Positions 1,253-63,900 of a DNA stretch of 64,000 bases are shown one piece after another; position 1 is the first letter of the stretch, and each line of letters begins with the position of its first letter. Source of the DNA: Ignavibacteria bacterium (GTDB lineage Bacteria; Bacteroidota; Ignavibacteria; Kapaibacteriales; Kapaibacteriaceae); contig JACPPD010000015.1 of the NCBI GenBank assembly GCA_016191145.1, positions 7,291-71,290 of the forward strand, read 5' to 3'. A program made the translations under genes and the position numbers. The notes under the pieces were generated by a model, which saw only the letters and a list, made by a program, of their open reading frames with translations, had not been told where the DNA came from and did no database searches.

Positions 1253-2488
1253 TTAGAATCTGATTGTCATTCCATAGGTCAAACCGTACTTCGGCGACGC
1301 ATACCACTGAGTATCGAAGCGATAGGCGAGAACTGCTGCTTCTGCTCCAAGGATAAATGAAAACGGTCCTGCAGGGGAGTATTCAAAACCAACAATGGCA
1401 CGCCCAAGAGGTCCCAATTTTGTGCCCCCTCCAAACACCTGCGTAAAAGGAGCTATAGGTAGGCTTCGGAATCCTTCAAACGTATACCGGTACGAAACAC
1501 CTGCCCATAACAAAGATGAAGATTGGTCCCATTGCTTCAACTGGTCGTTTTGTTCACCCCTGTAGACCAGCGGGAATGTCTCGCTTCCAAATTCAAGGCC
1601 CAGCATGTGAACCCTGTTAAGCCTATAAAAGGCTCCAACACTGATGTTACTGTACCAGTTGCTTTCTGGTGGTACGGCTGACTCAGTGGTGGGCTTCAAA
1701 GAAAAACCGCGGATTTGGAGTAAGGGGGCAGGGTATGCTGTAAGGTCTGAACCAACCTGCAATTCCGACTGCTTAATCATACGTTGGTCCTGCTTCCGCG
1801 AAATGGCGAACTCATTGCGAACAATCACATTTTGCAAAGGCGGTTCAGGAGCCTCGTGGAGTTGATCAAAGACTGGCTCTGGTGGAACTTCTTCGGATTC
1901 AGAATTAAGCTTTGCAAGTTCACTTCTCAACGCATCATTTTCATTTTGCAACGTGGCAATTCGACCCTGCAGATCTCTCTGCCTTGGTTCATTCCTCTGA
2001 ACTGGAGTAGAGTTATCAATGGTTGCTCCATTTACTGGATTAGCACTTAGCGAGGCATTAGCTGAGGTTTGTATGGCCTTATCACCGAATGCGACTACGG
2101 GTGAGCGTGCAGGTATGCTAGTAGTTGCCACATAGGTTATACCCGTAGCAGCCAACGCAGACAGCAAAGGAAGCCCAAGCTTTGAGAGCCAGGCAAGTAT
2201 GAGGCTGCCGCCTGCAGCACCTGCGGCGGCACCCGCCAGCGGCGCGGCAAAGCCTAGATGCGTGAATACCGAATTGGTAAGTTGGGCAGGAGGGATCAAG
2301 GCCATCCTGTCGTGCTGAACTGCAGACTTCACAGCTAGCTGGTTGCGCAGCTCAGTGCGTAGATCCGGGTTCACCGCAAGCTCGGCATAAAGACCCGATT
2401 CGAGCATCTGGTCCAGATCACCGTCGAGCAGTTCGTTTATTTGTTCAATGCGAGTCAACATCATCAACCTTTCTGGGAGCAGGTACAA
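1253..2488 (-). CDS. Anti-sigma factor with TM segment and C-terminal outer-membrane beta-barrel-like domain
   Basis: Directly downstream of ECF sigma; N-terminal INELLDGDL anti-sigma-like motif, hydrophobic segment, low-complexity linker, alternating beta-strands ending in F. Confidence 0.65.
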   Translation of the reverse strand: MYLLPERLMMLTRIEQINELLDGDLDQMLESGLYAELAVNPDLRTELRNQLAVKSAVQHDRMALIPPAQLTNSVFTHLGFAAPLAGAAAGAAGGSLILAWLSKLGLPLLSALAATGITYVATTSIPARSPVVAFGDKAIQTSANASLSANPVNGATIDNSTPVQRNEPRQRDLQGRIATLQNENDALRSELAKLNSESEEVPPEPVFDQLHEAPEPPLQNVIVRNEFAISRKQDQRMIKQSELQVGSDLTAYPAPLLQIRGFSLKPTTESAVPPESNWYSNISVGAFYRLNRVHMLGLEFGSETFPLVYRGEQNDQLKQWDQSSSLLWAGVSYRYTFEGFRSLPIAPFTQVFGGGTKLGPLGRAIVGFEYSPAGPFSFILGAEAAVLAYRFDTQWYASPKYGLTYGMTIRF

Positions 2489-2494
2489 GCCCCC

Positions 2495-3058
2495 TCACTG
2501 CGAATTCAATTCATTCAGATAGGGCTCCAGGATTTCCTTAATGCGCTGCCGTGCGCGGAAAACCCTCACCTTTGCTGTTTCAACCTTGATATTGAGAAGT
2601 ACAGTTATTTCGCTGTACGGAAGTCCCTGGTATTCCCTGAGGACAAACGCTTCGCGCATATCATGGGGCAGCAATTCAATTGCCATGGCAATGAGCTTTA
2701 ACATTTCATTGCGCTCGGCTTCTCGGCTCAACCCGGGATTGTACAGCATATCATCAAATTCAACCATCTGCGCCTGTACTCTCTTTTTCTCGTTCAGACA
2801 CAGGTTGCGAGAGATGGTGAGGATATAGCCCTTTACATTGTCAATCGTGACGTGCCGCTCTGCTCTTTGGAAGAACCGCATGAACGTATCCTGGAAAATG
2901 TCATGGGCCTTTTCGCGGTCGGCCATCACGCGCAGACAGTAGGCGTAAATGATATGAGCGTATCGGGTATAGAGTTCTGCAAATGCAGTTTCACTCTCGT
3001 CGGTATGCAACAATGCATAGAGCTCGCCATCGCTATATTCACTTAGCTGCCTATCCAT
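2495..3058 (-). CDS. ECF RNA polymerase sigma-70 factor
   Basis: Region 2 (AHDIFQDTFMRF, ISRNLCLN) and region 4 (REAFVLREYQGLPYSEI...TAKVRVFRAR) motifs. Confidence 0.95.
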   Translation of the reverse strand: MDRQLSEYSDGELYALLHTDESETAFAELYTRYAHIIYAYCLRVMADREKAHDIFQDTFMRFFQRAERHVTIDNVKGYILTISRNLCLNEKKRVQAQMVEFDDMLYNPGLSREAERNEMLKLIAMAIELLPHDMREAFVLREYQGLPYSEITVLLNIKVETAKVRVFRARQRIKEILEPYLNELNSQ

Positions 3059-3107
3059 CCCGACGTTTACTAACAGTAATTGGGTGAATTAGTTACGTGT
3101 TTCTGAC

Positions 3108-3128
3108 GTGCCAGGTGCCAGGTGTCAA
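3108..3128. repeat. Short intergenic heptamer tandem repeat (GTGCCAG)n
   Basis: gtgccag-gtgccag-gtgtcaa; related copies at ~5126-5176 and ~52195-52215. Confidence 0.5.
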
Positions 3129-3135
3129 GGCATGG

Positions 3136-3567
3136 TTATGTATTGCGGGTTTCCAGCAGCGAGTCGAACGCAGAAGTAAGGGCACTAGCAATCATTTCAG
3201 CAGTACGTCCTTCGATGTTATGGCGGGGCATGAAGGCTACAAGTTCGCCGTCGCGAAGAATTGCAAGTGAAGGCGAGGATGGCGGTACGCCTGTGAAATA
3301 GGAGCGCATGCGTTCAGTGGCCTCGAGATCCTGGCCGGCAAAAACGGTTACGATGTGGTCTGGTACAACTTCGTGTTTGAGAGCCAGAGCAATTGCTGGT
3401 CGTGCGGCGCCGGCAGCGCATCCACATACGGAGTTAACAACAACCATTGTTGTTCCTTCGGCCTTGACCGCGGCGTCAACTTCATCAGCAGTGAGTAATT
3501 CGCGTATACCTAAACTCGTAAGCTCCTCACGCATTGGCTTTACATACATTGGATCGTATGGCATCAC
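3136..3567 (-). CDS. BrxA/BrxB family bacilliredoxin
   Basis: VVNSVCGCAAGAARP (CGC) motif, TVFAGQD, PPSSPS. Confidence 0.93.
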   Translation of the reverse strand: MMPYDPMYVKPMREELTSLGIRELLTADEVDAAVKAEGTTMVVVNSVCGCAAGAARPAIALALKHEVVPDHIVTVFAGQDLEATERMRSYFTGVPPSSPSLAILRDGELVAFMPRHNIEGRTAEMIASALTSAFDSLLETRNT

Positions 3568-5024: not shown

Positions 5025-5241
5025 CGCCTACAGCCACATGCAATGTACTCTATGAAAGGGTCAACACCAATGATTTTCAAAAAATCCATCGGCAGACCTT
5101 TCCCCAACAACGTAGGATTCTGAGTTGCCACTTCTCGGCAGGTGCCACTTCTCGGCAAGTGCCAGATGCCAGGTGACGATAATCGTTCCATGAAAATGCA
5201 AAATGGCAACGATTACCATGTTAGATTGTTATATAAACGAA

Positions 5242-7500
5242 ATGCGTCGGGTTACTCTTATCGTTTTATTTTTTTCAGCGACCGTGGTACAGGTTGTAGC
5301 ACAGCGGGAGTACGACACATGGTATTTCGGGATAAGAGCCGGAATACAGTTCGGGAGTGGGGTTCCGGTAGGTATTCTTGGTCCCATCAACACGGAAGAG
5401 GGTACGTCGGTGTGGTGCGATCCATTGAGCGGAGCACCCATCCTTAGTACCGATGGTAGCATTGTTTACGATGGTACAGGATCTGTGCTCAATAACGGTA
5501 CGGGTCTGCGTGGTGGTTTCTCAAGTACAAACAGCGCACTGATTGTTCCTGATCCTGGTAATTCGGATCGCTATTATATTTTTTGCGCCGGAGATCTTTC
5601 GAGGTCGGGTATACCAGACTCCGTTTTTACAGTCAACATCGTCGATATGAGTGGTCCTGGTATCGGTACTGTCGTTAGTAAAAACAACATCCTTGCTTAT
5701 GGTACTGCAGAAAAAATTGCAGGCACGGTTCATTGCAATGGGGAATCGTGGTGGGTTGTAGCGCACGACACTGCTACACCAAGGTTTTATGTGTTCCTGG
5801 TTACTGCATCAAGCATTCAGGGACCAACCATTTATGATGTCGGAGAACAGTATACGAAGTCCCCAGGGAAGCCGGGCGGTTACTATGGAATGGGATCGCT
5901 GAAATTCAGTGCCTCCGGACGTCTCCTTGCCATGGCAAGTCCCTCCGGACAGATGTGCGAAATTTTCGACTTCGACATATTTAGCGGCGTTATTAGCAAT
6001 CCTCGAAGAGTCGACTCTGCAGATTTATTCTATGGGTTATCGTTCTCACCAAACGAAAGGTTCTTGTATTCAGTTTGCTGGAATGCATCGGCAGACATCC
6101 AATCTCCAATCTATCAGTATGACTTACTAAATTCTTTTAGTAAATATCGCGTTGGTTCATTGTCTGTAAAAAAGGACCGCGACAACGGAGGCATTCAGCG
6201 AGGACCCGATGGCAAGATTTACTTGGTTAACGGTGAGAACATGCGTGCAATAGATTCACCCAACCTAGCAGGAAGTGCTTGTGCCTTTGGCCGGCGAATC
6301 CCGCTGCTTGCAGGAACATCCAGTGCTATTGGTTTGCCGACAATAATGGACTGTGTTTTAGATAACAGCAGCATTGACTTTTGTGTACCTCCAATCTCGG
6401 CAATGAAAAATCCAACGGTCGCCTGTGTCGGCTCGTGTCTTACGTTCACCGATGCATCGCAACGTAAACCAACTGAGTGGTATTGGGATTTTTTAGGCGG
6501 AATACCTTCGGCGTTCACTGGTAAGAATCCGCCGATGGTGTGCTACTCCACGGCAGGCATATATCGCGTCAGACTGATAACTGTCAATGCTTGGGGTGCT
6601 GACACAACGGTTTCGGATATTCAGATACTCGATGTTCCCACTGTAAATGCAGGTGCGGACATAATTCTTTGCGATTCCTCCTACGGCAAGCTGCGAGCAT
6701 CGGGTGCAATGCGTTATGAGTGGTCGCCCATCACAGGACTCAACAATCAGTTTAAACCCGATCCGATTGTAAGAGTATTTACTACCACGCAGTATGTGGT
6801 AAGGGGCTGGAACGACGGGGAATGTTACAATGATGACACCGTAATGGTATATGTTTTAGAGGCCCCTTATCCTACGGATCTCTTCAGCATAAATTCTGTG
6901 CGTGGTCTTGCAGGTTCAACTTCACAGTTAATCATCACCAAAACTCGTGTCGAGTATGTGACTAACGCTACATTCGCAATCACCATACCGCGTAAAATTT
7001 TCATTTCCGACAGTATAGTTAAAGGTTTTGTAATTAGTAGTAGCTTATTGCGGCCCGACTTTCAGACACTCACAATACAGGCAGATCTTTCTACTGATAC
7101 AGTAGTTATCATCAACGGTATTTTATTGCTTGATAATTCTCAGGAAGAAGTATTTGCACAAACGACAACAACTGACGAATGCGTGAACGTTAAGACAACA
7201 CCCGGAAGCATCAACAGCGAAGCGTGTGGGGCAAGCAAGCGCGTTATTATTGGCGGAAGCAACCCGTTGTCAGTCATCTCTGTCTCTGACCAAGGCAAGG
7301 CAATAACCATTTCCGGCGAGCCTAGATCATCGTACGAACTCACCGTATGGACTGCAACAGGGGAATTACTTGCTAGGTCTGCTGACGTTATTCGCGAACC
7401 GATCCAAACCGTTCTGTTTAGTCGGCATTTTCCGCAAATGCTGTTCATCGTTCTTAGAAGTGAATCCGTATCTACGATGGTATCGGTATTTAACGAGTAA
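5242..7500 (+). CDS. Secreted beta-propeller/PKD-domain protein
   Basis: Signal peptide from ATG 5242, WYFG motif, propeller-like repeats (GPDGKIY), PKD motif FTDAS...WYWDF. Confidence 0.8.
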   Translation: MRRVTLIVLFFSATVVQVVAQREYDTWYFGIRAGIQFGSGVPVGILGPINTEEGTSVWCDPLSGAPILSTDGSIVYDGTGSVLNNGTGLRGGFSSTNSALIVPDPGNSDRYYIFCAGDLSRSGIPDSVFTVNIVDMSGPGIGTVVSKNNILAYGTAEKIAGTVHCNGESWWVVAHDTATPRFYVFLVTASSIQGPTIYDVGEQYTKSPGKPGGYYGMGSLKFSASGRLLAMASPSGQMCEIFDFDIFSGVISNPRRVDSADLFYGLSFSPNERFLYSVCWNASADIQSPIYQYDLLNSFSKYRVGSLSVKKDRDNGGIQRGPDGKIYLVNGENMRAIDSPNLAGSACAFGRRIPLLAGTSSAIGLPTIMDCVLDNSSIDFCVPPISAMKNPTVACVGSCLTFTDASQRKPTEWYWDFLGGIPSAFTGKNPPMVCYSTAGIYRVRLITVNAWGADTTVSDIQILDVPTVNAGADIILCDSSYGKLRASGAMRYEWSPITGLNNQFKPDPIVRVFTTTQYVVRGWNDGECYNDDTVMVYVLEAPYPTDLFSINSVRGLAGSTSQLIITKTRVEYVTNATFAITIPRKIFISDSIVKGFVISSSLLRPDFQTLTIQADLSTDTVVIINGILLLDNSQEEVFAQTTTTDECVNVKTTPGSINSEACGASKRVIIGGSNPLSVISVSDQGKAITISGEPRSSYELTVWTATGELLARSADVIREPIQTVLFSRHFPQMLFIVLRSESVSTMVSVFNE

Positions 7501-7513
7501 AAATATTTATCTG

Positions 7514-7586
7514 AGCCGACGACCAGACTTGAACTGGTGACCTGCTGATTACAAATCAGCTGCTCTACCAACTGAGCTACATCGGC
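7514..7586 (-). tRNA. tRNA-Thr (anticodon TGT), CCA not encoded
   Basis: Minus strand GCCGATGTAGCTCAGTTGGTAGAGCAGCTGATTTGTAATCAGCAGGTCACCAGTTCAAGTCTGGTCGTCGGCT folds as a full cloverleaf. Confidence 0.97.
7543..7586. repeat. Left att core (44 bp; 5' half of tRNA-Thr through the anticodon arm)
   Basis: tgctgattacaaatcagctgctctaccaactgagctacatcggc, identical to 43462-43505. Confidence 0.96.
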
Positions 7587-7748
7587 ATCATCATCGTGTG
7601 CTGGATCAAGTGTTTTGCGTCATACCGTAACCTGTCTATTTGCATGGACTTAGAGGAACCCGTGAGCCTCCGTGTCTCCGAGCGCCAATCGTCAACGATG
7701 CCGCCTATGACACCAAACCGGCGATAGACCGACAATAGACACCCAATA

Positions 7749-7770
7749 AATGGCTGCAAAGTGGCTGTAA
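7749..7770. promoter_or_regulatory. Putative integrase arm-type binding sites (left)
   Basis: aatggctgcaaagtggctgtaa nearly identical to 43404-43424 at the other end. Confidence 0.65.
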
Positions 7771-7788
7771 TTTTTTGACGGCTTTTGT

Positions 7789-8961
7789 TCATGCTGACTT
7801 CCACATCTTCTCAATTTTCTGTCGCAGCTCATGCGGCTCGAGCTTGAGGTAGTGACGCTCAAGAACCGGCGCACTACAGCGGGCCAGACGCGAGGCTTCG
7901 AAAATACTGAGGTCCGTTCCGATGCGGCGCACGACGCGGGAAATATACGTCTTCTTGAATTCATGCCAGCTGCGGTTGTTGCGCTCGATGCCGGCCCTGT
8001 GCATCACCTCATAGAGCGTTCGCCGCAGGCGTGAGTCCGACGTGCTATGATAGCCTAGAATGGCGTCGTGAGGCTTCTGAACACCGTTTTCCTGGGCAAT
8101 ACGCGCAAGCAAGGCGATGTCGTCGCCGGTCAGAGGAATGTATTCCCATGTCCGTGCGTCCTTGCGTTCAACGCGAATGGTCATCGCCGTCGTATCGATG
8201 TCTTCGCGTTTGAGTGCCAGTGCCTCGTGTAACCTCAGCGGTGTTCGTGCCAGAACAGCAATGATGTGCCCGACTTTGACCTGCGATTTCGGTGCTGAGG
8301 GACGCCGGCAGATGGCCAGCATCGCCTCGATCTCTGTGTCGGTGTAGATCTGAACAGGCTTGCCAGGCCGATGGGGCATCATCTTGCGGATGGTGCTGGC
8401 GCGAGGAACGATCGGCATCAACCCTTCACGATTGGCCCAATTGCAGAACACCATGAACGTGCGCAGGTAGATGGCCACCGATTCGATGGTAATCGATCCG
8501 GTCGGCGTCTGGCATGTTCTGACCAATTCGGCCATTGCCAGCTCGGCCGTCGAGCACTGCACAGAGCCACGAACCACAACACGGTTCACCGGATCGTGGG
8601 CGTTACCATGGCAGATGACGGCCTGCCAGGCAAGCTTGTAGTTCCTCAGGCTGGCCCGTGAACGCCGAGCGCCATGGTCGGCAAGGAATCGCTCGAAGGC
8701 CTCAGCAAGGGTTATGGCCGCTGTCGTGTCGCGAACGACGCCACGAGCAATCTGCCAACGGCGTATGAGGTCTTCGAGCATGCGACGTGCCGACATCCAG
8801 CCATGCGGAGAGGCCACGATGCCGGTGGCAATGTCACGCGGGATGTTCAGGTCGCGGGCCACACGACGTGGCAGGCTGATATACAGGCGCTTGGACGTCT
8901 GCCGCTCATAGACCGAACCCATCGACGCCGAATGGCGGCGCGCTTTTGCCGAAGGTTTCAC
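7789..8961 (-). CDS. Tyrosine recombinase (integrase)
   Basis: Box I LARTPLRLHEALALKREDID, box II SWHEFKKTYIS...LERHY, SAM-like core-binding region; next to att. Confidence 0.9.
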   Translation of the reverse strand: MKPSAKARRHSASMGSVYERQTSKRLYISLPRRVARDLNIPRDIATGIVASPHGWMSARRMLEDLIRRWQIARGVVRDTTAAITLAEAFERFLADHGARRSRASLRNYKLAWQAVICHGNAHDPVNRVVVRGSVQCSTAELAMAELVRTCQTPTGSITIESVAIYLRTFMVFCNWANREGLMPIVPRASTIRKMMPHRPGKPVQIYTDTEIEAMLAICRRPSAPKSQVKVGHIIAVLARTPLRLHEALALKREDIDTTAMTIRVERKDARTWEYIPLTGDDIALLARIAQENGVQKPHDAILGYHSTSDSRLRRTLYEVMHRAGIERNNRSWHEFKKTYISRVVRRIGTDLSIFEASRLARCSAPVLERHYLKLEPHELRQKIEKMWKSA

Positions 8962-9314
8962 CGTAGCGTCTCCTCAGATGACACGTCGGGCGGCAGGTGC
9001 CATGGGCACGGCGCCTCAGCGCCGCAACAGAAATCATAGCCGTCGTTTGGCGCGTGTGACCACACACAGCCAAGGCCCGTGACGACCCAGCGGGAGTTGA
9101 TACCATGGCTCTCGAGCACCTGTAACACAGAGATCGACGGCAACGATTCGCCATTGATCCAACGGTATAGTGTTTTTGGATACTCGTCTAGCGCGTCAGC
9201 AGCCGCAAGCACCGTACCATACTTCATGAGAACCAGCCACCTCAAGCGCGCACCAACTTCCGAGTCGATTGTCTTAAGACGAAACATGGAGAATGACATC
9301 CCTATAGGATTCAT
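8958..9314 (-). CDS. XRE-family HTH repressor (start uncertain)
   Basis: GARLRWL...AAADALDEYPKTLYRWINGESLPS...INSRWVVTG HTH pattern; divergent from xis-like gene. Confidence 0.75.
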   Translation of the reverse strand: MNPIGMSFSMFRLKTIDSEVGARLRWLVLMKYGTVLAAADALDEYPKTLYRWINGESLPSISVLQVLESHGINSRWVVTGLGCVWSHAPNDGYDFCCGAEAPCPWHLPPDVSSEETLR

Positions 9315-9340
9315 GTGGATAACTTTTAATTGTGGCAGTA

Positions 9341-9372
9341 TTGACAATGACGCTGTTGTCACACTACGTTTG
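9341..9372 (+). promoter_or_regulatory. Putative early promoter with overlapping palindromic operator
   Basis: TTG at 9341 and TACGTTTG (TAnnTTTG) at 9365-9372; inverted repeat TGACAA-N8-TTGTCA at 9342-9361. Confidence 0.55.
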
Positions 9373-9480
9373 TACCGAGTTGCGGAGTTAACCGGCAATA
9401 GAGTGTCAGTAATGCCACGCACAGATAGCCGGCAAACTACGAGGATTGAGAGCAACCAAAAACACGGGATTCTACGCAAT

Positions 9481-9852
9481 ATGGGACGCCCATCAAGAAC
9501 AGGATCGCACCGCCATTCACTTCTTCTTCTGAGGGAAGAAGCTGCAAAGTTGTTGGGTGTCGGCAACGATGACTATGTCAAATTCCTGGTCGAAGAAGGA
9601 TACCTACGCGCCGTCTCCTATCGCTCGATGTCTTTTTACCATCGCGATGATATTATCAATCTGACACGCCAGGCTCTCAAGGTCGGATGGATGCCGACTG
9701 AAGATAAACCGTGGCCTGTCAATTATGCGGAGTACACCCCATGCCTGAATACGGCAACGCCAACGATCCATCCTCTGACCCTCGTCCACAAGACGAAGAG
9801 ATCAACGTCGCTGAAGAAAATTCAGAACTTCCTCAGGACTCCGACGACGTAG
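9481..9852 (+). CDS. Excisionase-like/MerR-type HTH protein
   Basis: LLREEAAKLLGV...LVEEGYLRAV...YHRDDI matches the Xis/HTH_17 pattern. Confidence 0.7.
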   Translation: MGRPSRTGSHRHSLLLLREEAAKLLGVGNDDYVKFLVEEGYLRAVSYRSMSFYHRDDIINLTRQALKVGWMPTEDKPWPVNYAEYTPCLNTATPTIHPLTLVHKTKRSTSLKKIQNFLRTPTT

Positions 9853-10950: not shown

Positions 10951-11333
10951 GGCAGACAACACTGTCATGTTTTAATGGTATAGAGGCAGGCCGCGAGATC
11001 TGTGAGCTTCAGCAGTGGCATACCCATCTGATGCTCGGAATGCTCTCTCATACCCGCCTAACGATGGGAATGGAGTTGTTTGCGGCACAGATTAAACGTA
11101 AAACACAGCCTGATCATGAAGGGGTGTTGTCAGTCAAAGCATTTCATGCCATCATGGAACGATGTCGCAAGGCAGTCCGCACATTCCATGTACATGGATC
11201 GCTGTCGAACGACAGATCGTTTATTGTAAAAGTCAAAGGATGCTGGGACGCCGAAGAAGCGTCCTATCTGGCGCTCATCACACTTTCTGCGATCGACTCG
11301 ACAGCTTCTATAGCGGAGATCCATGAAATCTAA
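10947..11333 (+). CDS. Hypothetical protein
   Basis: ATGA-coupled ORF in the early operon. Confidence 0.6.
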   Translation: MRQTTLSCFNGIEAGREICELQQWHTHLMLGMLSHTRLTMGMELFAAQIKRKTQPDHEGVLSVKAFHAIMERCRKAVRTFHVHGSLSNDRSFIVKVKGCWDAEEASYLALITLSAIDSTASIAEIHEI

Positions 11334-12336
11334 CATCAATATGGATCTGTTAACACTGGTCCGTTTCGAAGAGCGTGATACGCCACCCCAGGAACGTCTG
11401 GTTTATCTGGCGCTGCTCGTTAACAAACACGTGCATGAGTCTGGCTTTTATGAAATCGGCATCAAGGCACTGAAGCGCCTCACCGGCTTGACGGATGAAG
11501 AACTGACGATAGCACTCGAGAACCTTGAGCAGGCCGGTTTTATCGTCTACGACAGGCCATGGTTGTATATCGAGCAGGTCAGAACGGCATTTCACTGGCT
11601 CATGTTTCATGGCCGCGAAAGCCAGGCTCACGAGCTTGTCAGGCGGCACTCCATTGTGCTCAACGACAACAGGGCCTGGCAGTCGTGGGTTAGATTTACC
11701 AGCATCATGCTCGGCGACGATATGCCGAAAATTGGTGCGCGGCCTGCCGTAAAGATTTTTTTTCAGCCCTTTCAGGATGTCGAAGACCGGCCTGATGATG
11801 CTGAAACCACCAAGTCCCATGATGTGCTCTCGGCAGCATCACTACTGCCTATGCAGCGGGTAACGACCCCCTCTCTACCCCATAGGCAGGGGGTAACGAC
11901 CCCCTCTCTACCCGATAAGCAGGGGGTAAGCACCCCCTCTCTACCTGATAAGCAGGGGGTAAGCACCCCGTCTCTACCCGATAAGCAGGGGGTAAGCACC
12001 CCATCTCTACCCGATAAGCAGGGGGTAAGCACCCCATCTCTACCCGATAAGCAGGGGGTAAGCACCCCATCTGTACCCCCTGCCGATACCCTACCTACCC
12101 CGTCTATACCCCCTGCTGATACCGTAGCTATACCATATCAATACCCTGACGATCCCGTTAATACCTTCCAAAAAGCTCTTATACCCCCTACCTATGGGGT
12201 AAGCACAGGGTACGTACCCCCACCTAAGACTAATACTACTCTTCTTTCTGTAGAAAGAGAAGAGGGGGTGCGGGGGGGAAGAGAAAACAACGACGACGAA
12301 CCAAATCATTCAACCGACGAGGATACACTGCCATGA
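11323..12336 (+). CDS. Putative replication initiator (N-terminal winged HTH) with internal repeats
   Basis: LVYLALL...SGFYEIGIKALKRLTGL...ALENLEQAGFIVYD resembles phage initiator wHTH; 11-aa repeats TPSLPDKQGVS. Confidence 0.65.
   Translation: MKSNINMDLLTLVRFEERDTPPQERLVYLALLVNKHVHESGFYEIGIKALKRLTGLTDEELTIALENLEQAGFIVYDRPWLYIEQVRTAFHWLMFHGRESQAHELVRRHSIVLNDNRAWQSWVRFTSIMLGDDMPKIGARPAVKIFFQPFQDVEDRPDDAETTKSHDVLSAASLLPMQRVTTPSLPHRQGVTTPSLPDKQGVSTPSLPDKQGVSTPSLPDKQGVSTPSLPDKQGVSTPSLPDKQGVSTPSVPPADTLPTPSIPPADTVAIPYQYPDDPVNTFQKALIPPTYGVSTGYVPPPKTNTTLLSVEREEGVRGGRENNDDEPNHSTDEDTLP
11853..12083. repeat. Seven 33-bp tandem repeats, candidate iteron origin
   Basis: Unit gcagggggtaagcaccccatctctacccgataa starting at 11853, 11886, 11919, 11952, 11985, 12018, 12051; each holds a GGGGT-N4-ACCCC-type palindrome. 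Confidence 0.85.
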
Positions 12337-15178: not shown

Positions 15179-15216
15179 AGAACACTCTCCGTCATGGAGT
15201 CAAAAATAGAATAGTA

Positions 15217-42070: not shown

Positions 42071-42292
42071 TCACTTCGATTTCCGATTCTCTTCATGAAT
42101 GACGTTCTTTGCTTCCTGTAGGGAACAGTAAAACCCAAGGAAACGCTCGTTATAATATACTTGATAAGGACAATGGTTGCCTACAACCCTGCCGACTACA
42201 CGACCGCTTTGATGTGTACAAGCATAGTATTGGCCATAATAATGATACCACTTCAATGCCTCATCATGAAATTCAGGACTGTTCATTGCCAT
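42071..42292 (-). CDS. Small hypothetical protein
   Basis: Coupled to the upstream ORF; Tyr-rich. Confidence 0.45.
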   Translation of the reverse strand: MAMNSPEFHDEALKWYHYYGQYYACTHQSGRVVGRVVGNHCPYQVYYNERFLGFYCSLQEAKNVIHEENRKSK

Positions 42293-43152
42293 TAGGTACC
42301 TTCCTCATCGACAAAAGACCAGTCCAAAGATTTGATCGCGATGCGTTGATATTCATCTCCGACATAATGACCAAAAAGGGAGACGGCACGTGAGGCGGCA
42401 GCAGCATAAGTAACCGCTAGATGGGCACGCCTGATACATAGTTGTGAGAGAATATTACTACTGCCCACCAAGGCGATAGAGCGAACAATATTGCTTGCCG
42501 CATAGGTCGCAAAGGGTTGGCCATATTCTGATCGTGCGTTTGCACATGAAACGACCATACCTGGAAATAGATGCGTTAATTTTTCTCTAGAAATTTCACG
42601 ATGCAAATACTTTTCTGCCTCATCAAGCGCATCAAGCACATACTCATCAGGTATCAAATTCAAAACGGTGCCTCGCAGCGTAGGTGTGTTTCGGACAAAG
42701 TCAAGGGCTAAGCGAACGAATTGATCCTCAGACCGAAGCATGAGCGACGTCTGTAAAAGTTCTATGTCTTCACAGTAGTTGATAGCCTCAACGAACGTAT
42801 CGAATTGGGAGGCATAGTCAATCAACTTCGACGGCATCGCGTGACGAAAAAGCTTTTTTAGGTGATTTCTGTTGTAATCGATGACTCGCGGCGACGCAAT
42901 AGCTCGCTTAATGATTTCCTGCACAAGTATTGCTATGTATGGTTCTTCTTGGGATTTGAAGATCAAAATATCCTGATAATTGTAGATGAGCCAGCGCGAT
43001 TTGAAATAGCGGACCATACCACCAAATACTTGCTCGAGGAACCAGATCCCATAAATGGAAGTTCCATCGAGGTCCACGACAAGTTTCTTACCGGCAGCGG
43101 CGGCTTCGAGGAAGGCACCGATCAACACGTTTTCTCGTAGCTCTTGGGCCAA
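42292..43152 (-). CDS. STAS-like (DUF4325-type) domain fused to a helical domain (start uncertain)
   Basis: LVVDLDGTSIYGIWFLEQVFGGMVR resembles the DUF4325 motif. Confidence 0.6.
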   Translation of the reverse strand: MAQELRENVLIGAFLEAAAAGKKLVVDLDGTSIYGIWFLEQVFGGMVRYFKSRWLIYNYQDILIFKSQEEPYIAILVQEIIKRAIASPRVIDYNRNHLKKLFRHAMPSKLIDYASQFDTFVEAINYCEDIELLQTSLMLRSEDQFVRLALDFVRNTPTLRGTVLNLIPDEYVLDALDEAEKYLHREISREKLTHLFPGMVVSCANARSEYGQPFATYAASNIVRSIALVGSSNILSQLCIRRAHLAVTYAAAASRAVSLFGHYVGDEYQRIAIKSLDWSFVDEEGT

Positions 43153-43403: not shown

Positions 43404-43424
43404 AATGGCTGCAAATGGCTGTAA
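43404..43424. promoter_or_regulatory. Putative integrase arm-type binding sites (right)
   Basis: aatggctgcaaatggctgtaa matches 7749-7770. Confidence 0.65.
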
Positions 43425-43461
43425 AAATCGATCTAAGTAGCTGGTTTATAACGTATCGTGT

Positions 43462-43505
43462 TGCTGATTACAAATCAGCTGCTCTACCAACTGAGCTACA
43501 TCGGC
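43462..43505. repeat. Right att core (44 bp; truncated 5' half of tRNA-Thr)
   Basis: Identical to 7543-7586; no T-arm or 3' acceptor strand follows. Confidence 0.96.
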
Positions 43506-44098
43506 GAAACACCAAATATACGGTCTTCGATTTGCTCGCACCAGATGTGTCCGATAAGGATGTGTGACTCCTGGATGCGTGCGGTGGTGGATGAGGGGAC
43601 GACGACGGATGCATCGCACAGATCCTTGATTGCGCCTCCAGAGCCCCCTAACAAACCAATGACGGTAATACCGTGCGCTTTTGCAGCTTGCGATGCGTTA
43701 ATTACGTTCGCTGAATTGCCGCTTGTAGTGATAGCGATAAGAACATCCTTCGGTTTGCCATAAGCCTCGACTTGGCGCGAAAAGACGTGATCGAAACCAT
43801 AATCATTGCCGCCAGCAGTGAGCATTGATGTATCGGTTGTTAGGGCTATGGCTGCAATGGCACGTCGCTCAACGGAACTGCGAAAACGTATTACAAGTTC
43901 TGCGGCAATGTGCTGACAGTCTGCCGCACTACCGCCGTTGCCACAAAGCATTATTAACCGACTAGCACGCACAGCCTCGACGAGTATCTCACCACAGCTA
44001 AAGATTTCGTGGGAGCACTGCTGTGCAAGTAACTGCTTTGCTTGAGCAGAATCACTGATGAGCTGTGCGACTCGCGATGCGTCGAAGGGATTGTGCAT
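43496..44098 (-). CDS. gmhA: D-sedoheptulose-7-phosphate isomerase
   Basis: [47 protein letters not shown]. Confidence 0.95.
43513..43520 (-). promoter_or_regulatory. Putative native tRNA-Thr promoter -7 box
   Basis: TATATTTG (TAnnTTTG) ending 7 nt before the tRNA 5' end at 43505. Confidence 0.5.
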
Positions 44099-44939
44099 GT
44101 ACAAAATTACGAGTTGCAAGCGCTGTGATTACGATGATGCCACCAACGATTGCCGACGAGGACGGCACTTCGCTATAGAACAATGCCACCCAGACAGGAT
44201 TGAGAAGGGGTTCTAACGTCGTTATCAATACTGCTTCGATAGCTGTTACATGAGCTATTGCCCATGAGTAAAGGATGTATGAGATTCCGAGCTGCAACAT
44301 GCCTAGTGATAGAATCCCAACGATAATGTCGGTACGAATAGGGAATGGATCAAGGAATGGCAGGCATACAATCGCTGTAAGAACATTGCCAAGTAGAATG
44401 CTCTCCACAGTTGACTTTCCATGCTGTGCCCTCATACACAATGCAACACAAGCAAATGCAACTCCACTGCCGACAGCAATCAGGTTGCCAACCATGTTAC
44501 CCATGGAAACACGCTCGATGAAGAATACAGACATGCCTGCCATCACAACGATTACGGTAATCACGTCGATGCGAGTGAGCCGTTCCTTAGTGATGACGGC
44601 ACTAAACAAGGCAACCCATATTGGAGCAGTATATTGTAAAAAAATTGCATTTGCAGCAGTAGTCATCTTTGTGGCAACAACAAACAACAATACCGTTAGA
44701 CAATAACTAACAATGCTACCCCACTGTGCTGCAGACCACGTTGGCTTCGGATGCCTTACCCACAGTAAGATTACAACAGCTGCAATGGCGCTTCGCGTTC
44801 CGGAAATTGTTAGGGGGCTTAGTGGGAGAATCTTTATCAGTAAGCCGCCGGTGCTCCACAAAAACGCAGTGATGATAAGAGCTGCCACACCTTTACGGTG
44901 CAGTTGCGGAATAAAGATCTGCTGGATTGCTGACTTCAA
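44052..44939 (-). CDS. EamA/DMT family transporter
   Basis: Ten TM segments; [14 protein letters not shown] and [10 protein letters not shown]. Confidence 0.92.
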
Positions 44940-45787
44940 CGCTCGAAATATAAATCGTCGGTAACGGAAAATTCAACAACGGCTGAGTCCTTCCCTTTAC
45001 CGAAATATGCAATCACCTTAGTTTGTGAAGCTGTTCTGATGGCAGGGTATCTCAGATCTACAGGGACGTGGAGCATGATTTCGGCACGAAGTTTCGATGA
45101 CGTAGGAATTAAACCTCCCATTTCACCGACGGCATTTTCAGCCGATGCTTTCATCTCTACAACAGCAGCAGGCATGTAACTGCCTGAATCGATTCTAATG
45201 AAAGTTACTTTTCCCTTTACGGATTTTGCCCGTTTCTTCCCAACTTCGTCAAACGTTTTCTTTAGCGCTGTTACATTTATCGGCCAGGTATCTCCGACGC
45301 CGACCTTCTTGCGTGGGTCAAGTATTTCACCAGTGCGCTTGCCACCTTCAGAACGAATTACTGGAACAAGATTTGCCATCACGTCGGCAGGCAATGGGAT
45401 ACTGTCTTTAAGAATAACTGTACTGGTGTCAGAAAAAGATGCAAGTAGTTCTGTCCCCGGCGGAAGAATTTCACTTGTCTGGCTGTTGTGCTCTGCGAAG
45501 GCATGCCTGATCTTAATACTTTTTACGGCTTCCTGACCGTCGGTGGTAACGGCCTGAACGCGGCATAATGCACTGATCCGAACAATAATCGTGTCGGCCT
45601 GCACCACATTAAGAGAGTCGTTCCTATCACGTACCTGGACGCGAGAAATACGTGTCGATGTACCGCGCAGCTCGTATTGGTCGAAAGCTCTAATCGAGCG
45701 GCCCATTGTGAGGTCGATCTGCTCACTACTGTATGCGCCAACGAACGCGATACTGCAAACCGTAACAACAACAGCAATGAATCTCAA
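44936..45787 (-). CDS. Hypothetical exported protein
   Basis: Signal peptide; coupled to neighbours; VGDTW motif. Confidence 0.7.
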   Translation of the reverse strand: MRFIAVVVTVCSIAFVGAYSSEQIDLTMGRSIRAFDQYELRGTSTRISRVQVRDRNDSLNVVQADTIIVRISALCRVQAVTTDGQEAVKSIKIRHAFAEHNSQTSEILPPGTELLASFSDTSTVILKDSIPLPADVMANLVPVIRSEGGKRTGEILDPRKKVGVGDTWPINVTALKKTFDEVGKKRAKSVKGKVTFIRIDSGSYMPAAVVEMKASAENAVGEMGGLIPTSSKLRAEIMLHVPVDLRYPAIRTASQTKVIAYFGKGKDSAVVEFSVTDDLYFER

Positions 45788-52189: not shown

Positions 52190-52221
52190 GCAACGCGCCA
52201 GGTGCCAGGTGCCAAGTATAA

Positions 52222-63614: not shown

Positions 63615-63642
63615 GTCATTATTCTCACATAAGCCCTTCTTT

Positions 63643-63782
63643 CCCGGCAGCATATCTCTCCCGGCATGTTCCCCGGCAGCATATCTCTCCCGGCATGTTC
63701 CCCGGCAGCATATCTCTCCCGGCATGTTCCCCGGCAGCATATCTCTCCCGGCATGTTGCCGGGAGACATATCTCTCCCGGCA
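63643..63782. repeat. Four 29-bp tandem repeats ending in a palindrome
   Basis: cccggcagcatatctctcccggcatgttc at 63643, 63672, 63701, 63730, then tgccgggaga...tctcccggca. Confidence 0.9.
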
Positions 63783-63900
63783 AGATCTTCAAACTGAATC
63801 ATTACCTGTTGCTTCTTGTGGTTGGGTATTACGCAATGCAGTTGTATTTTTGTCGGCTCTACCAATTCTTACCGCTTATTTCCCGTATGGGGTTGTATTC

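Follow-up and report, generated by a model that had tools for sequence, protein, structure and literature searches.

Integration that restores the 5' part of a tRNA gene is rare. Table 1 of the Islander study (Hudson, Lau and Williams 2015) lists 159 islands with 5' fragments and 3760 with 3' fragments among 3919 (PMC4383910), which agrees with the rarity claimed in the first-pass annotation of the locus described here. HTVC019P-type pelagiphages have been reported to restore the 5' ends of tRNA-Cys, tRNA-Leu and tRNA-Arg genes, with junctions confirmed by PCR (bioRxiv 10.1101/410191, Zhao et al.). Outside tRNA genes, dusA islands replace the 5' end of their target with element DNA, and putative -10 and -35 sequences have been described for the state before and the state after integration (Farrugia et al. 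2015, PMC4482086). In tRNA-dependent lysogeny, the host tRNA does not survive the short core (about 10 bp), and a tRNA gene encoded by the phage takes its place (Guerrero-Bustamante and Hatfull 2024, PMC10865867). That integrated elements may be transcriptionally coupled to tRNA promoters was suggested earlier for tRNA-linked integrases (PMC2951348). An element that inserts at the 5' end of a tRNA gene must itself take charge of that gene's transcription, a consequence seldom examined; a search of the full-text literature found no treatment of such a takeover of tRNA transcription.

We analysed a stretch of 64,000 nucleotides (the window) from an Ignavibacteria bacterium, in which an element of 35.9 kb lies in a tRNA-Thr(UGU) gene. 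The layout is uncommon and already known, and belongs to a minority class. It is of the same kind as the Islander 5'-fragment islands, with their intact tRNA gene, co-oriented 5' fragment upstream and internal integrase (PMC4383910): here an intact tRNA gene and an upstream 5' fragment in the same orientation enclose an integrase gene, and the interval is absent from locus L002 of a relative. It is also like the anticodon-centred attP class of that study, in which the whole anticodon stem-loop lies in the identity block (PMC4383910); the block found here is tRNA positions 1-44 and holds the complete stem-loop, positions 27-43. New relative to the Islander cases are the Bacteroidota-type host, the integrase, which is of a rare lineage, and the loss of a defined -7 box, which can be seen in the sequence. 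The pelagiphages differ in being T7-like podoviruses of SAR11 with base changes in some rebuilt tRNAs, and their account of these sites makes no mention of promoters (bioRxiv 10.1101/410191); in the present element the rebuilt tRNA is exact and there are no recognisable tailed-phage genes. As in the dusA islands, transcription of the target must come from the element, but those islands have a protein-coding target and an integrase of another family (PMC4482086), and here no replacement promoter is recognisable. In ordinary 3'-end integration into tRNA genes the integrase gene has its 3' end towards the att core, as it does here; the tRNA in the window, however, is inverted relative to the integrase, with the result that the 5' end is rebuilt and the promoter lost. 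Finally, as in tRNA-dependent lysogeny, an essential host tRNA function becomes dependent on the element (PMC10865867). Unlike that system, the tRNA is rebuilt exactly (73 bits), the element encodes no tRNA of its own, and only transcription of the tRNA would depend on it.

Our preferred reading, to which we give a probability of about 0.6, is that integrase-mediated insertion occurred in the single tRNA-Thr(UGU) gene and that the tRNA is then transcribed from element DNA, likely as the tail of a helix-turn-helix (HTH)-integrase transcript.

Results

The tRNA-Thr(UGU) gene and the 44-nt att core

The following features define the two junctions.

7513-7586, minus strand: intact tRNA-Thr(UGU), called by ARAGORN as tRNA-Thr(tgt), with its 5' part from the element and its 3' part from the host
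7543-7586, minus strand: att core at the tRNA junction, tRNA positions 1-44 as an exact direct repeat of 44 nt
43462-43505, minus strand: att core at the far junction, a displaced tRNA 5' fragment with host upstream DNA still attached
7544-7560, minus strand: anticodon stem-loop in the core, read from the sequence as GCTGA TTTGTAA TCAGC, with a twin at 43463-43479

This tRNA-Thr(tgt) was the only tRNA that ARAGORN called in the 64-kb window. It matched Rfam RF00005 at 7514-7586 with 73 bits and was identical with the tRNA of the empty-site relative (L002). The repeat search found that the 44-nt repeat was far beyond chance in 64 kb and that the window held no second repeat of 44 nt with widely separated copies. 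The first-pass annotation had described the repeat as running from tRNA position 1 through the anticodon arm, and this proved exact: identity is bounded precisely by tRNA +1 and by position 44, the latter one base past the 3' strand of the anticodon stem. The core thus spans the 5' strand of the acceptor stem, the D arm, the whole anticodon arm and one extra base. The arms of the anticodon stem are putative integrase core sites around a 7-nt crossover region, a position proposed by analogy with the anticodon-centred attP class (PMC4383910); the two cores are identical and offer no polymorphism as a marker of the crossover. ARAGORN called no tRNA in the fragment at 43462-43505. An Rfam tRNA match at 43414-43505 was considered as a relic of a whole tRNA and rejected, as it was marginal (30.5 bits) and carried by the 5' half. 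The 5' half borne by the element matches the acceptor stem of the host genus exactly, and all 44 core bases are common to only 2 of 11 relatives (L002 and L003).

A count of tRNA-Thr(TGT) genes had been proposed, and it gave a single copy: the 19-contig genome, with a listed completeness of 99.96%, has 41 tRNAs, of which one is tRNA-Thr(tgt). Similarly, the one-contig relative G007 had a single locus matching the tRNA 5' half, at 90%. ACA is the commonest threonine codon of the host: across 1024 long host ORFs it accounts for 34% of Thr codons (21.9 of every 1000 codons overall), and in 7 element ORFs for 29% of Thr codons. Whatever transcribes tRNA-Thr(UGU) in the integrated state must be reasonably active. 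A search with the 44-nt core for further lysogens or an unintegrated attP yielded nothing but a viral contig that is unrelated and carries a full tRNA-Thr of its own, and patterns of both junctions had no match in metagenome or viral contigs.

Empty site and extent of the element

To look for an empty site, gmhA plus the tRNA fragment served as query against 41 genomes (the own genome and 40 relatives). The same-genus genome G002 matched the query over its full length, at 86%. Window positions 6043-7586 aligned with positions 1-1544 of its locus L002 (83%) and window positions 43462-45500 with positions 1501-3539 (86%); the 44-bp core, no more and no less, is common to both flank alignments, and L002 has an intact tRNA-Thr(tgt) at 1471-1544. 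The flanks meet on the core in L002, and therefore a 35.9-kb element has been inserted in the window. An empty-site genome had been expected to join gmhA, the tRNA and a PKD gene directly, and in L002 this adjacency was indeed uninterrupted. Among the gmhA loci of 14 relatives, 11 carried tRNA-Thr(tgt) within the locus. The element and its host neighbours are as follows.

7587-43461, no strand: integrated element, 35,919 bp with one core copy, of higher GC and absent from L002
5203-7500, plus strand: host PKD-domain gene, converging on the tRNA 3' end, with weak PKD matches and syntenic in L002
43496-44119, minus strand: ORF of the host gmhA-like phosphoheptose isomerase gene, matching NCBIfam NF010546 (6.5e-62) and TIGR00441 (1.6e-53), with both scores under the equivalog cutoffs

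GC content was 0.50-0.57 inside the element and 0.46-0.51 in the flanks; the element is 5-8 points above the host. The final 10 nt of gmhA, stop codon included, are tRNA positions 1-10. In G002 the same 10-nt overlap of gmhA and tRNA was observed, together with a -7 box in the last gmhA codons. A further relative, G010, has 16 kb between gmhA and tRNA-Thr and was tried as a second insertion of the 5' type; it was rejected, having no fragment beside gmhA and a normal TAATTTTG box before the tRNA.

The displaced host -7 box

It has been reported that TAnnTTTG is the -7 box of sigma-A promoters in Bacteroidota (PMC9723704). The host also has type IX secretion sorting domains. The first-pass annotation had placed such a box before the host-side 5' fragment, and it was found there:

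43520-43513, minus strand: host -7 box TATATTTG, its G 8 nt before +1 of the fragment (and of the tRNA), within the last gmhA codons

An exact TAnnTTTG occurred within 35 nt upstream of 21 of the 41 tRNA genes of this genome but in only 0.44% of 20,000 random 35-nt windows; when one mismatch was allowed, the proportions were 31 of 41 and 12.9%. The 2.47-Mb genome holds 833 exact boxes. Moreover, in 10 of 11 relatives an exact box stood 7-24 nt upstream of the tRNA-Thr(UGU) gene, and the surrounding sequence differed. Judged from these frequencies, TATATTTG is a real promoter-type box in the host organism. Short tandem (N)NTGGCAC units were observed in intergenic DNA of the window (3106-3129, 5157-5180 and 52193-52216); some units stand just upstream of tRNA-gene -7 boxes, and 33 double units occur genome-wide.

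Integrase and candidate arm sites

7789-8961, minus strand: tyrosine integrase of 390 aa, lying upstream of the tRNA in the same orientation (PF00589; phrog_1, 2.1e-22)
7749-7770, minus strand: putative arm-type integrase site TTACAGCCACTTTGCAGCCATT, a motif found twice in the window, once per arm
43404-43424, minus strand: putative arm-type integrase site TTACAGCCATTTGCAGCCATT, the second copy of this motif

The integrase matched PF00589 (Phage_integrase) with 32.1 bits, above the gathering cutoff of 27.1. It belongs to a rare lineage, with 3 relatives at 42-44% identity among 5.8 billion proteins. Scans for close relatives and their genomic context, with the single protein and with the alignment, gave no match in genome, metagenome or viral contigs, in 401 genomes of the phylum or in phage records. 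R243 and H333 align with the corresponding residues of XerA (5hxy), and the position of the second catalytic Arg (HxxR of XerA) is occupied by Lys (K336) in all 4 family members. Y371 is invariant in the family, at a position outside the stretch aligned to XerA. All four members read HE[FY]KK where XerA reads HvlRH.

Homologues of the integrase at 30-31% identity in G239 and G072 adjoin tRNA-Val(tac). In G072 (L019) the integrase gene converges on the 3' end of tRNA-Val, 140 nt away; in G239 (L018) the tRNA-Val lies about 1.4 kb from the integrase in the same orientation. From these layouts it follows that the tRNA segment in the window is inverted relative to the integrase gene.

The motif TTACAGCCA(C)TTTGCAGCCATT, of 21 or 22 nt, has exactly two copies in the window (0 expected from shuffled sequences). 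The copy on the integrase arm lies 163-184 nt away from the core, that on the other arm 38-58 nt. These copies are candidate arm-type integrase sites, a function suggested by their number and placement. In the predicted attP, ACACGAT flanks the core on both sides (near 7587-7600 and 43452-43461). It abuts the core on the right-arm side, and GATGAT stands between the two on the integrase side; this pair may be due to chance or may be a further binding site.

Element content and relatives

The element encodes the integrase, a DnaD-like protein, an ATPase, a 1497-aa methylase-helicase, a 1772-aa protein and a phage-type lysozyme (3.5e-31). It has no ORF of 400-1400 aa. Among its 43 ORFs, Pfam and PHROGs revealed no recognisable capsid, portal, terminase or conjugation genes; the element thus lacks the recognisable terminase, portal and major capsid genes that mark a tailed temperate phage, and divergent structural genes may be present. 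Phage-record searches of 3 element proteins, the integrase included, and PDB sequence searches of 4 gave no match, nor did NCBIfam match any of the right-arm proteins. PADLOC returned only weak matches on the element, and the best ESM Atlas scores for its proteins (0.83 and 0.80) serve as leads only. Within the DnaD-like ORF (11323-12336, plus strand), seven overlapping copies of a 107-nt unit, 33 nt apart, were observed at 11806-12110, forming a tandem array that repeats every 33 nt (11 codons).

Collinear relatives of the element were found in four other genomes of the host family (G013, G016, G019 and G053), for example:

G013, C11 about 259.8-291 kb (L031-L033): collinear relative
G019, C21 about 103-128 kb (L034-L036): collinear relative

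The collinear relatives have in common an ATPase, a methylase-helicase, a lysozyme and, at 36-37% identity, a giant protein of about 1800 aa. The giant protein was matched in 6 of 254 genomes of the order, a count that includes the own genome and a weak match in G227. The element is a member of an uncharacterised family present in at least five genomes of the host family. In G013 the relative has a different integrase (SAM_5 type) and an HTH_17 protein at the opposite end, with no tRNA in 49 kb. It follows that the integrase-plus-attP module can be exchanged and that the tRNA-Thr 5' site is part of it. Searches for att repeats around the related elements in G013 and G019 found none.

Two further observations concern other parts of the window and genome. 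A tandem array of a 29-nt unit, TTCCCCGGCAGCATATCTCTCCCGGCATG, whose copies are 88-100% alike, lies at 63640-63784 right after a Memo-like gene. In addition, the tRNA-Lys(ctt) gene at G000:C14:71311-71385 has an exact 20-nt copy of its 3' end at C14:47335-47354, 24 kb downstream in the same orientation, and is a candidate for an ordinary 3'-type island in the same genome.

DNA upstream of the rebuilt tRNA

7587-7788, minus strand: spacer between integrase and tRNA, with no -7 box and no terminator
8958-9314, minus strand: putative HTH (cI/XRE-like) gene, its stop overlapping the integrase start (GTGA)

What the element rebuilds is the front and not the back half of the tRNA gene, which has thereby been separated from its own promoter. 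The first-pass annotation had put the 5' flank of the intact gene inside the element and a co-oriented integrase end about 200 nt away; both points held, as 203 nt of element DNA separate the tRNA from the integrase stop codon upstream of it. Its failure to see TAnnTTTG just upstream of 7586 was also confirmed, even with one mismatch allowed, over 205 nt. All points of that annotation which can be checked on sequence were borne out. The nearest exact box upstream on the tRNA strand is at 15208, 7.6 kb off, and all intergenic regions of the element are devoid of an exact host-type box. Between 7587 and 9480 (1894 nt) there are 5 one-mismatch boxes, compared with about 9 expected by chance, the nearest being TATTTTCG and TATATTTC, both within the integrase gene, at 313 and 354 nt from the tRNA. 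On the minus strand, the spacer has no sigma-70-like site, and no terminator-like site occurs from the integrase start to the tRNA outside the tRNA itself. The RNA fold of the spacer was no better than that of shuffled sequence.

Given this anatomy, transcription of the tRNA must start in element DNA. The most likely route would be read-through from an HTH-integrase operon ending 203 nt upstream. Such an operon is suggested by the GTGA overlap; the ORF at 8958-9314 had only sub-threshold Pfam matches (HTH_3, E=0.0065; Phage_CI_repr, E=0.1), and coding scores were ambiguous across 8958-9852. Among the runs checked, the stretch was present only in the source DNA run, and the only RNA run among them, X2, contained 0.04 of the sampled words.

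The far junction and the right arm

42292-43152, minus strand: first sizeable ORF past the displaced host promoter, 286 aa, with an N-terminal DUF4325 (Pfam, 2.4e-6)

This ORF starts 310 nt downstream of the fragment, and every ORF from 43152 down to 24445 is on the minus strand, which gives about 19 kb co-oriented with the host box. No terminator-like site was found on the minus strand between 43461 and 43152, and no stable hairpin follows the fragment, where the fold was no better than that of shuffles. With this arrangement, the displaced host box would fire into the right end of the element. In the excised circle the right-arm genes would lie downstream of the integrase, and therefore integration swaps the upstream signals of the tRNA and of the right arm.

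Discussion

Proposed mechanism and alternatives

We propose that the element integrase recombines an attP, which bears tRNA positions 1-44 exactly, with the host tRNA-Thr(UGU) gene, strand exchange most likely taking place in the anticodon loop between the two stem arms. On this reading, identity extends to tRNA +1 because the element has to rebuild the 5' part of the gene. One product would be element DNA, positions 1-44 and the host 3' part, which form a working tRNA; the other would be the host promoter, positions 1-44 and the right end of the element. The tRNA has thereby lost its conserved -7 box. Its transcription would now come from element DNA, in all likelihood at the 3' end of the HTH-integrase transcript, from which the usual end-processing enzymes, RNase P at the 5' end, would release it. 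The host tRNA promoter and read-through from gmhA would run into the co-oriented right-arm genes. Two points stand against the HTH-integrase-tRNA transcript. The box search of element DNA recognised no promoter for it, and in lysogens the expression of integrase genes is often low, which sits uneasily with a tRNA serving the commonest Thr codon.

The same anatomy might be served by a promoter of the element's own, either non-consensus sigma-A or of an alternative sigma factor, situated in the spacer or in the 3' end of the integrase gene. Read-through from the integrase would then be unnecessary. This possibility, which we hold to be a serious if doubtful one, is modelled on the islands that replace the 5' end of dusA, for which putative promoters have been described after integration (PMC4482086). 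It would suit the high demand for tRNA-Thr(UGU), and host tRNA genes tolerate imperfect boxes: 10 of the 41 lack an exact box and have, within 35 nt, one with a single mismatch, and variants such as TATATTCG precede host tRNAs. The adjoining 205 nt, however, contain nothing within one mismatch of the box and, on the minus strand of the spacer, nothing resembling a sigma-70 site; the two one-mismatch boxes within the integrase gene could be invoked, but such boxes do not exceed chance expectation there.

It is very unlikely, in our judgement, that the rebuilt tRNA is poorly expressed, so that the lysogen bears a fitness cost and the insertion is transient or deleterious rather than adapted. The lack of a recognisable upstream promoter would be in keeping with such a state, as would the elevated GC of the element (5-8 points over the host) and its want of exact host-type boxes in intergenic regions, which suggests poor adaptation to the host transcription machinery. 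Yet the attP identity ends exactly at tRNA +1 and matches the acceptor stem of the genus, which implies selection for a working tRNA, and there was enough of the lysogen for assembly at about 36-fold depth. Related elements are also present in four further genomes of the host family, so the lineage is established among those hosts.

Lastly, the assembly is metagenome-derived, and the Logan contigs of runs X1, X3 and X4 break inside the tRNA (those of X3 and X4 cover the tRNA only), leaving the junctions unbridged in the likely source run; in X1, depth over window positions 6600-8600 was 35.9 on the host flank and 48.1 on the element side, a gap that may reflect GC bias or extra excised copies. 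That the assembler threaded a free circle sharing 44 bp with the tRNA into the chromosome is nevertheless the least credible explanation, since both junctions lie on one 144-kb contig with the exact geometry of site-specific integration. With read lengths and k-mers above 44, an assembler is unlikely to mis-join twice through a repeat of 44 bp, and the contig breaks follow from a tRNA sequence common to many organisms of the sample (bin depth 1321). Even the attP of a free element would carry tRNA positions 1-44 and yield the same integration products.

Implications

Returning to insertion in the single tRNA-Thr(UGU) gene with transcription from element DNA, the reciprocal exchange of promoters might act as a switch that reports the state of integration, protecting the element and driving its right arm only when integrated. 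We consider this unlikely and offer it as a speculation. If it were true, the sole ACA-decoding tRNA would be the last part of the element's lysogeny (HTH-integrase) transcript, and the cell would run short of tRNA-Thr(UGU) once the integrase-proximal end was deleted or silenced; the element would in this way be protected from decay. Likewise, a strong, growth-coupled host tRNA promoter would drive the right-arm genes only during integration. The value of the locus is that of a clean test case and not of a new principle: the box that has visibly been displaced is well defined and conserved, the tRNA, present in one copy, reads the commonest Thr codon, and no replacement box can be seen. Transcripts from this locus bear on how the element keeps an essential tRNA expressed and on whether a captured tRNA promoter drives element genes.
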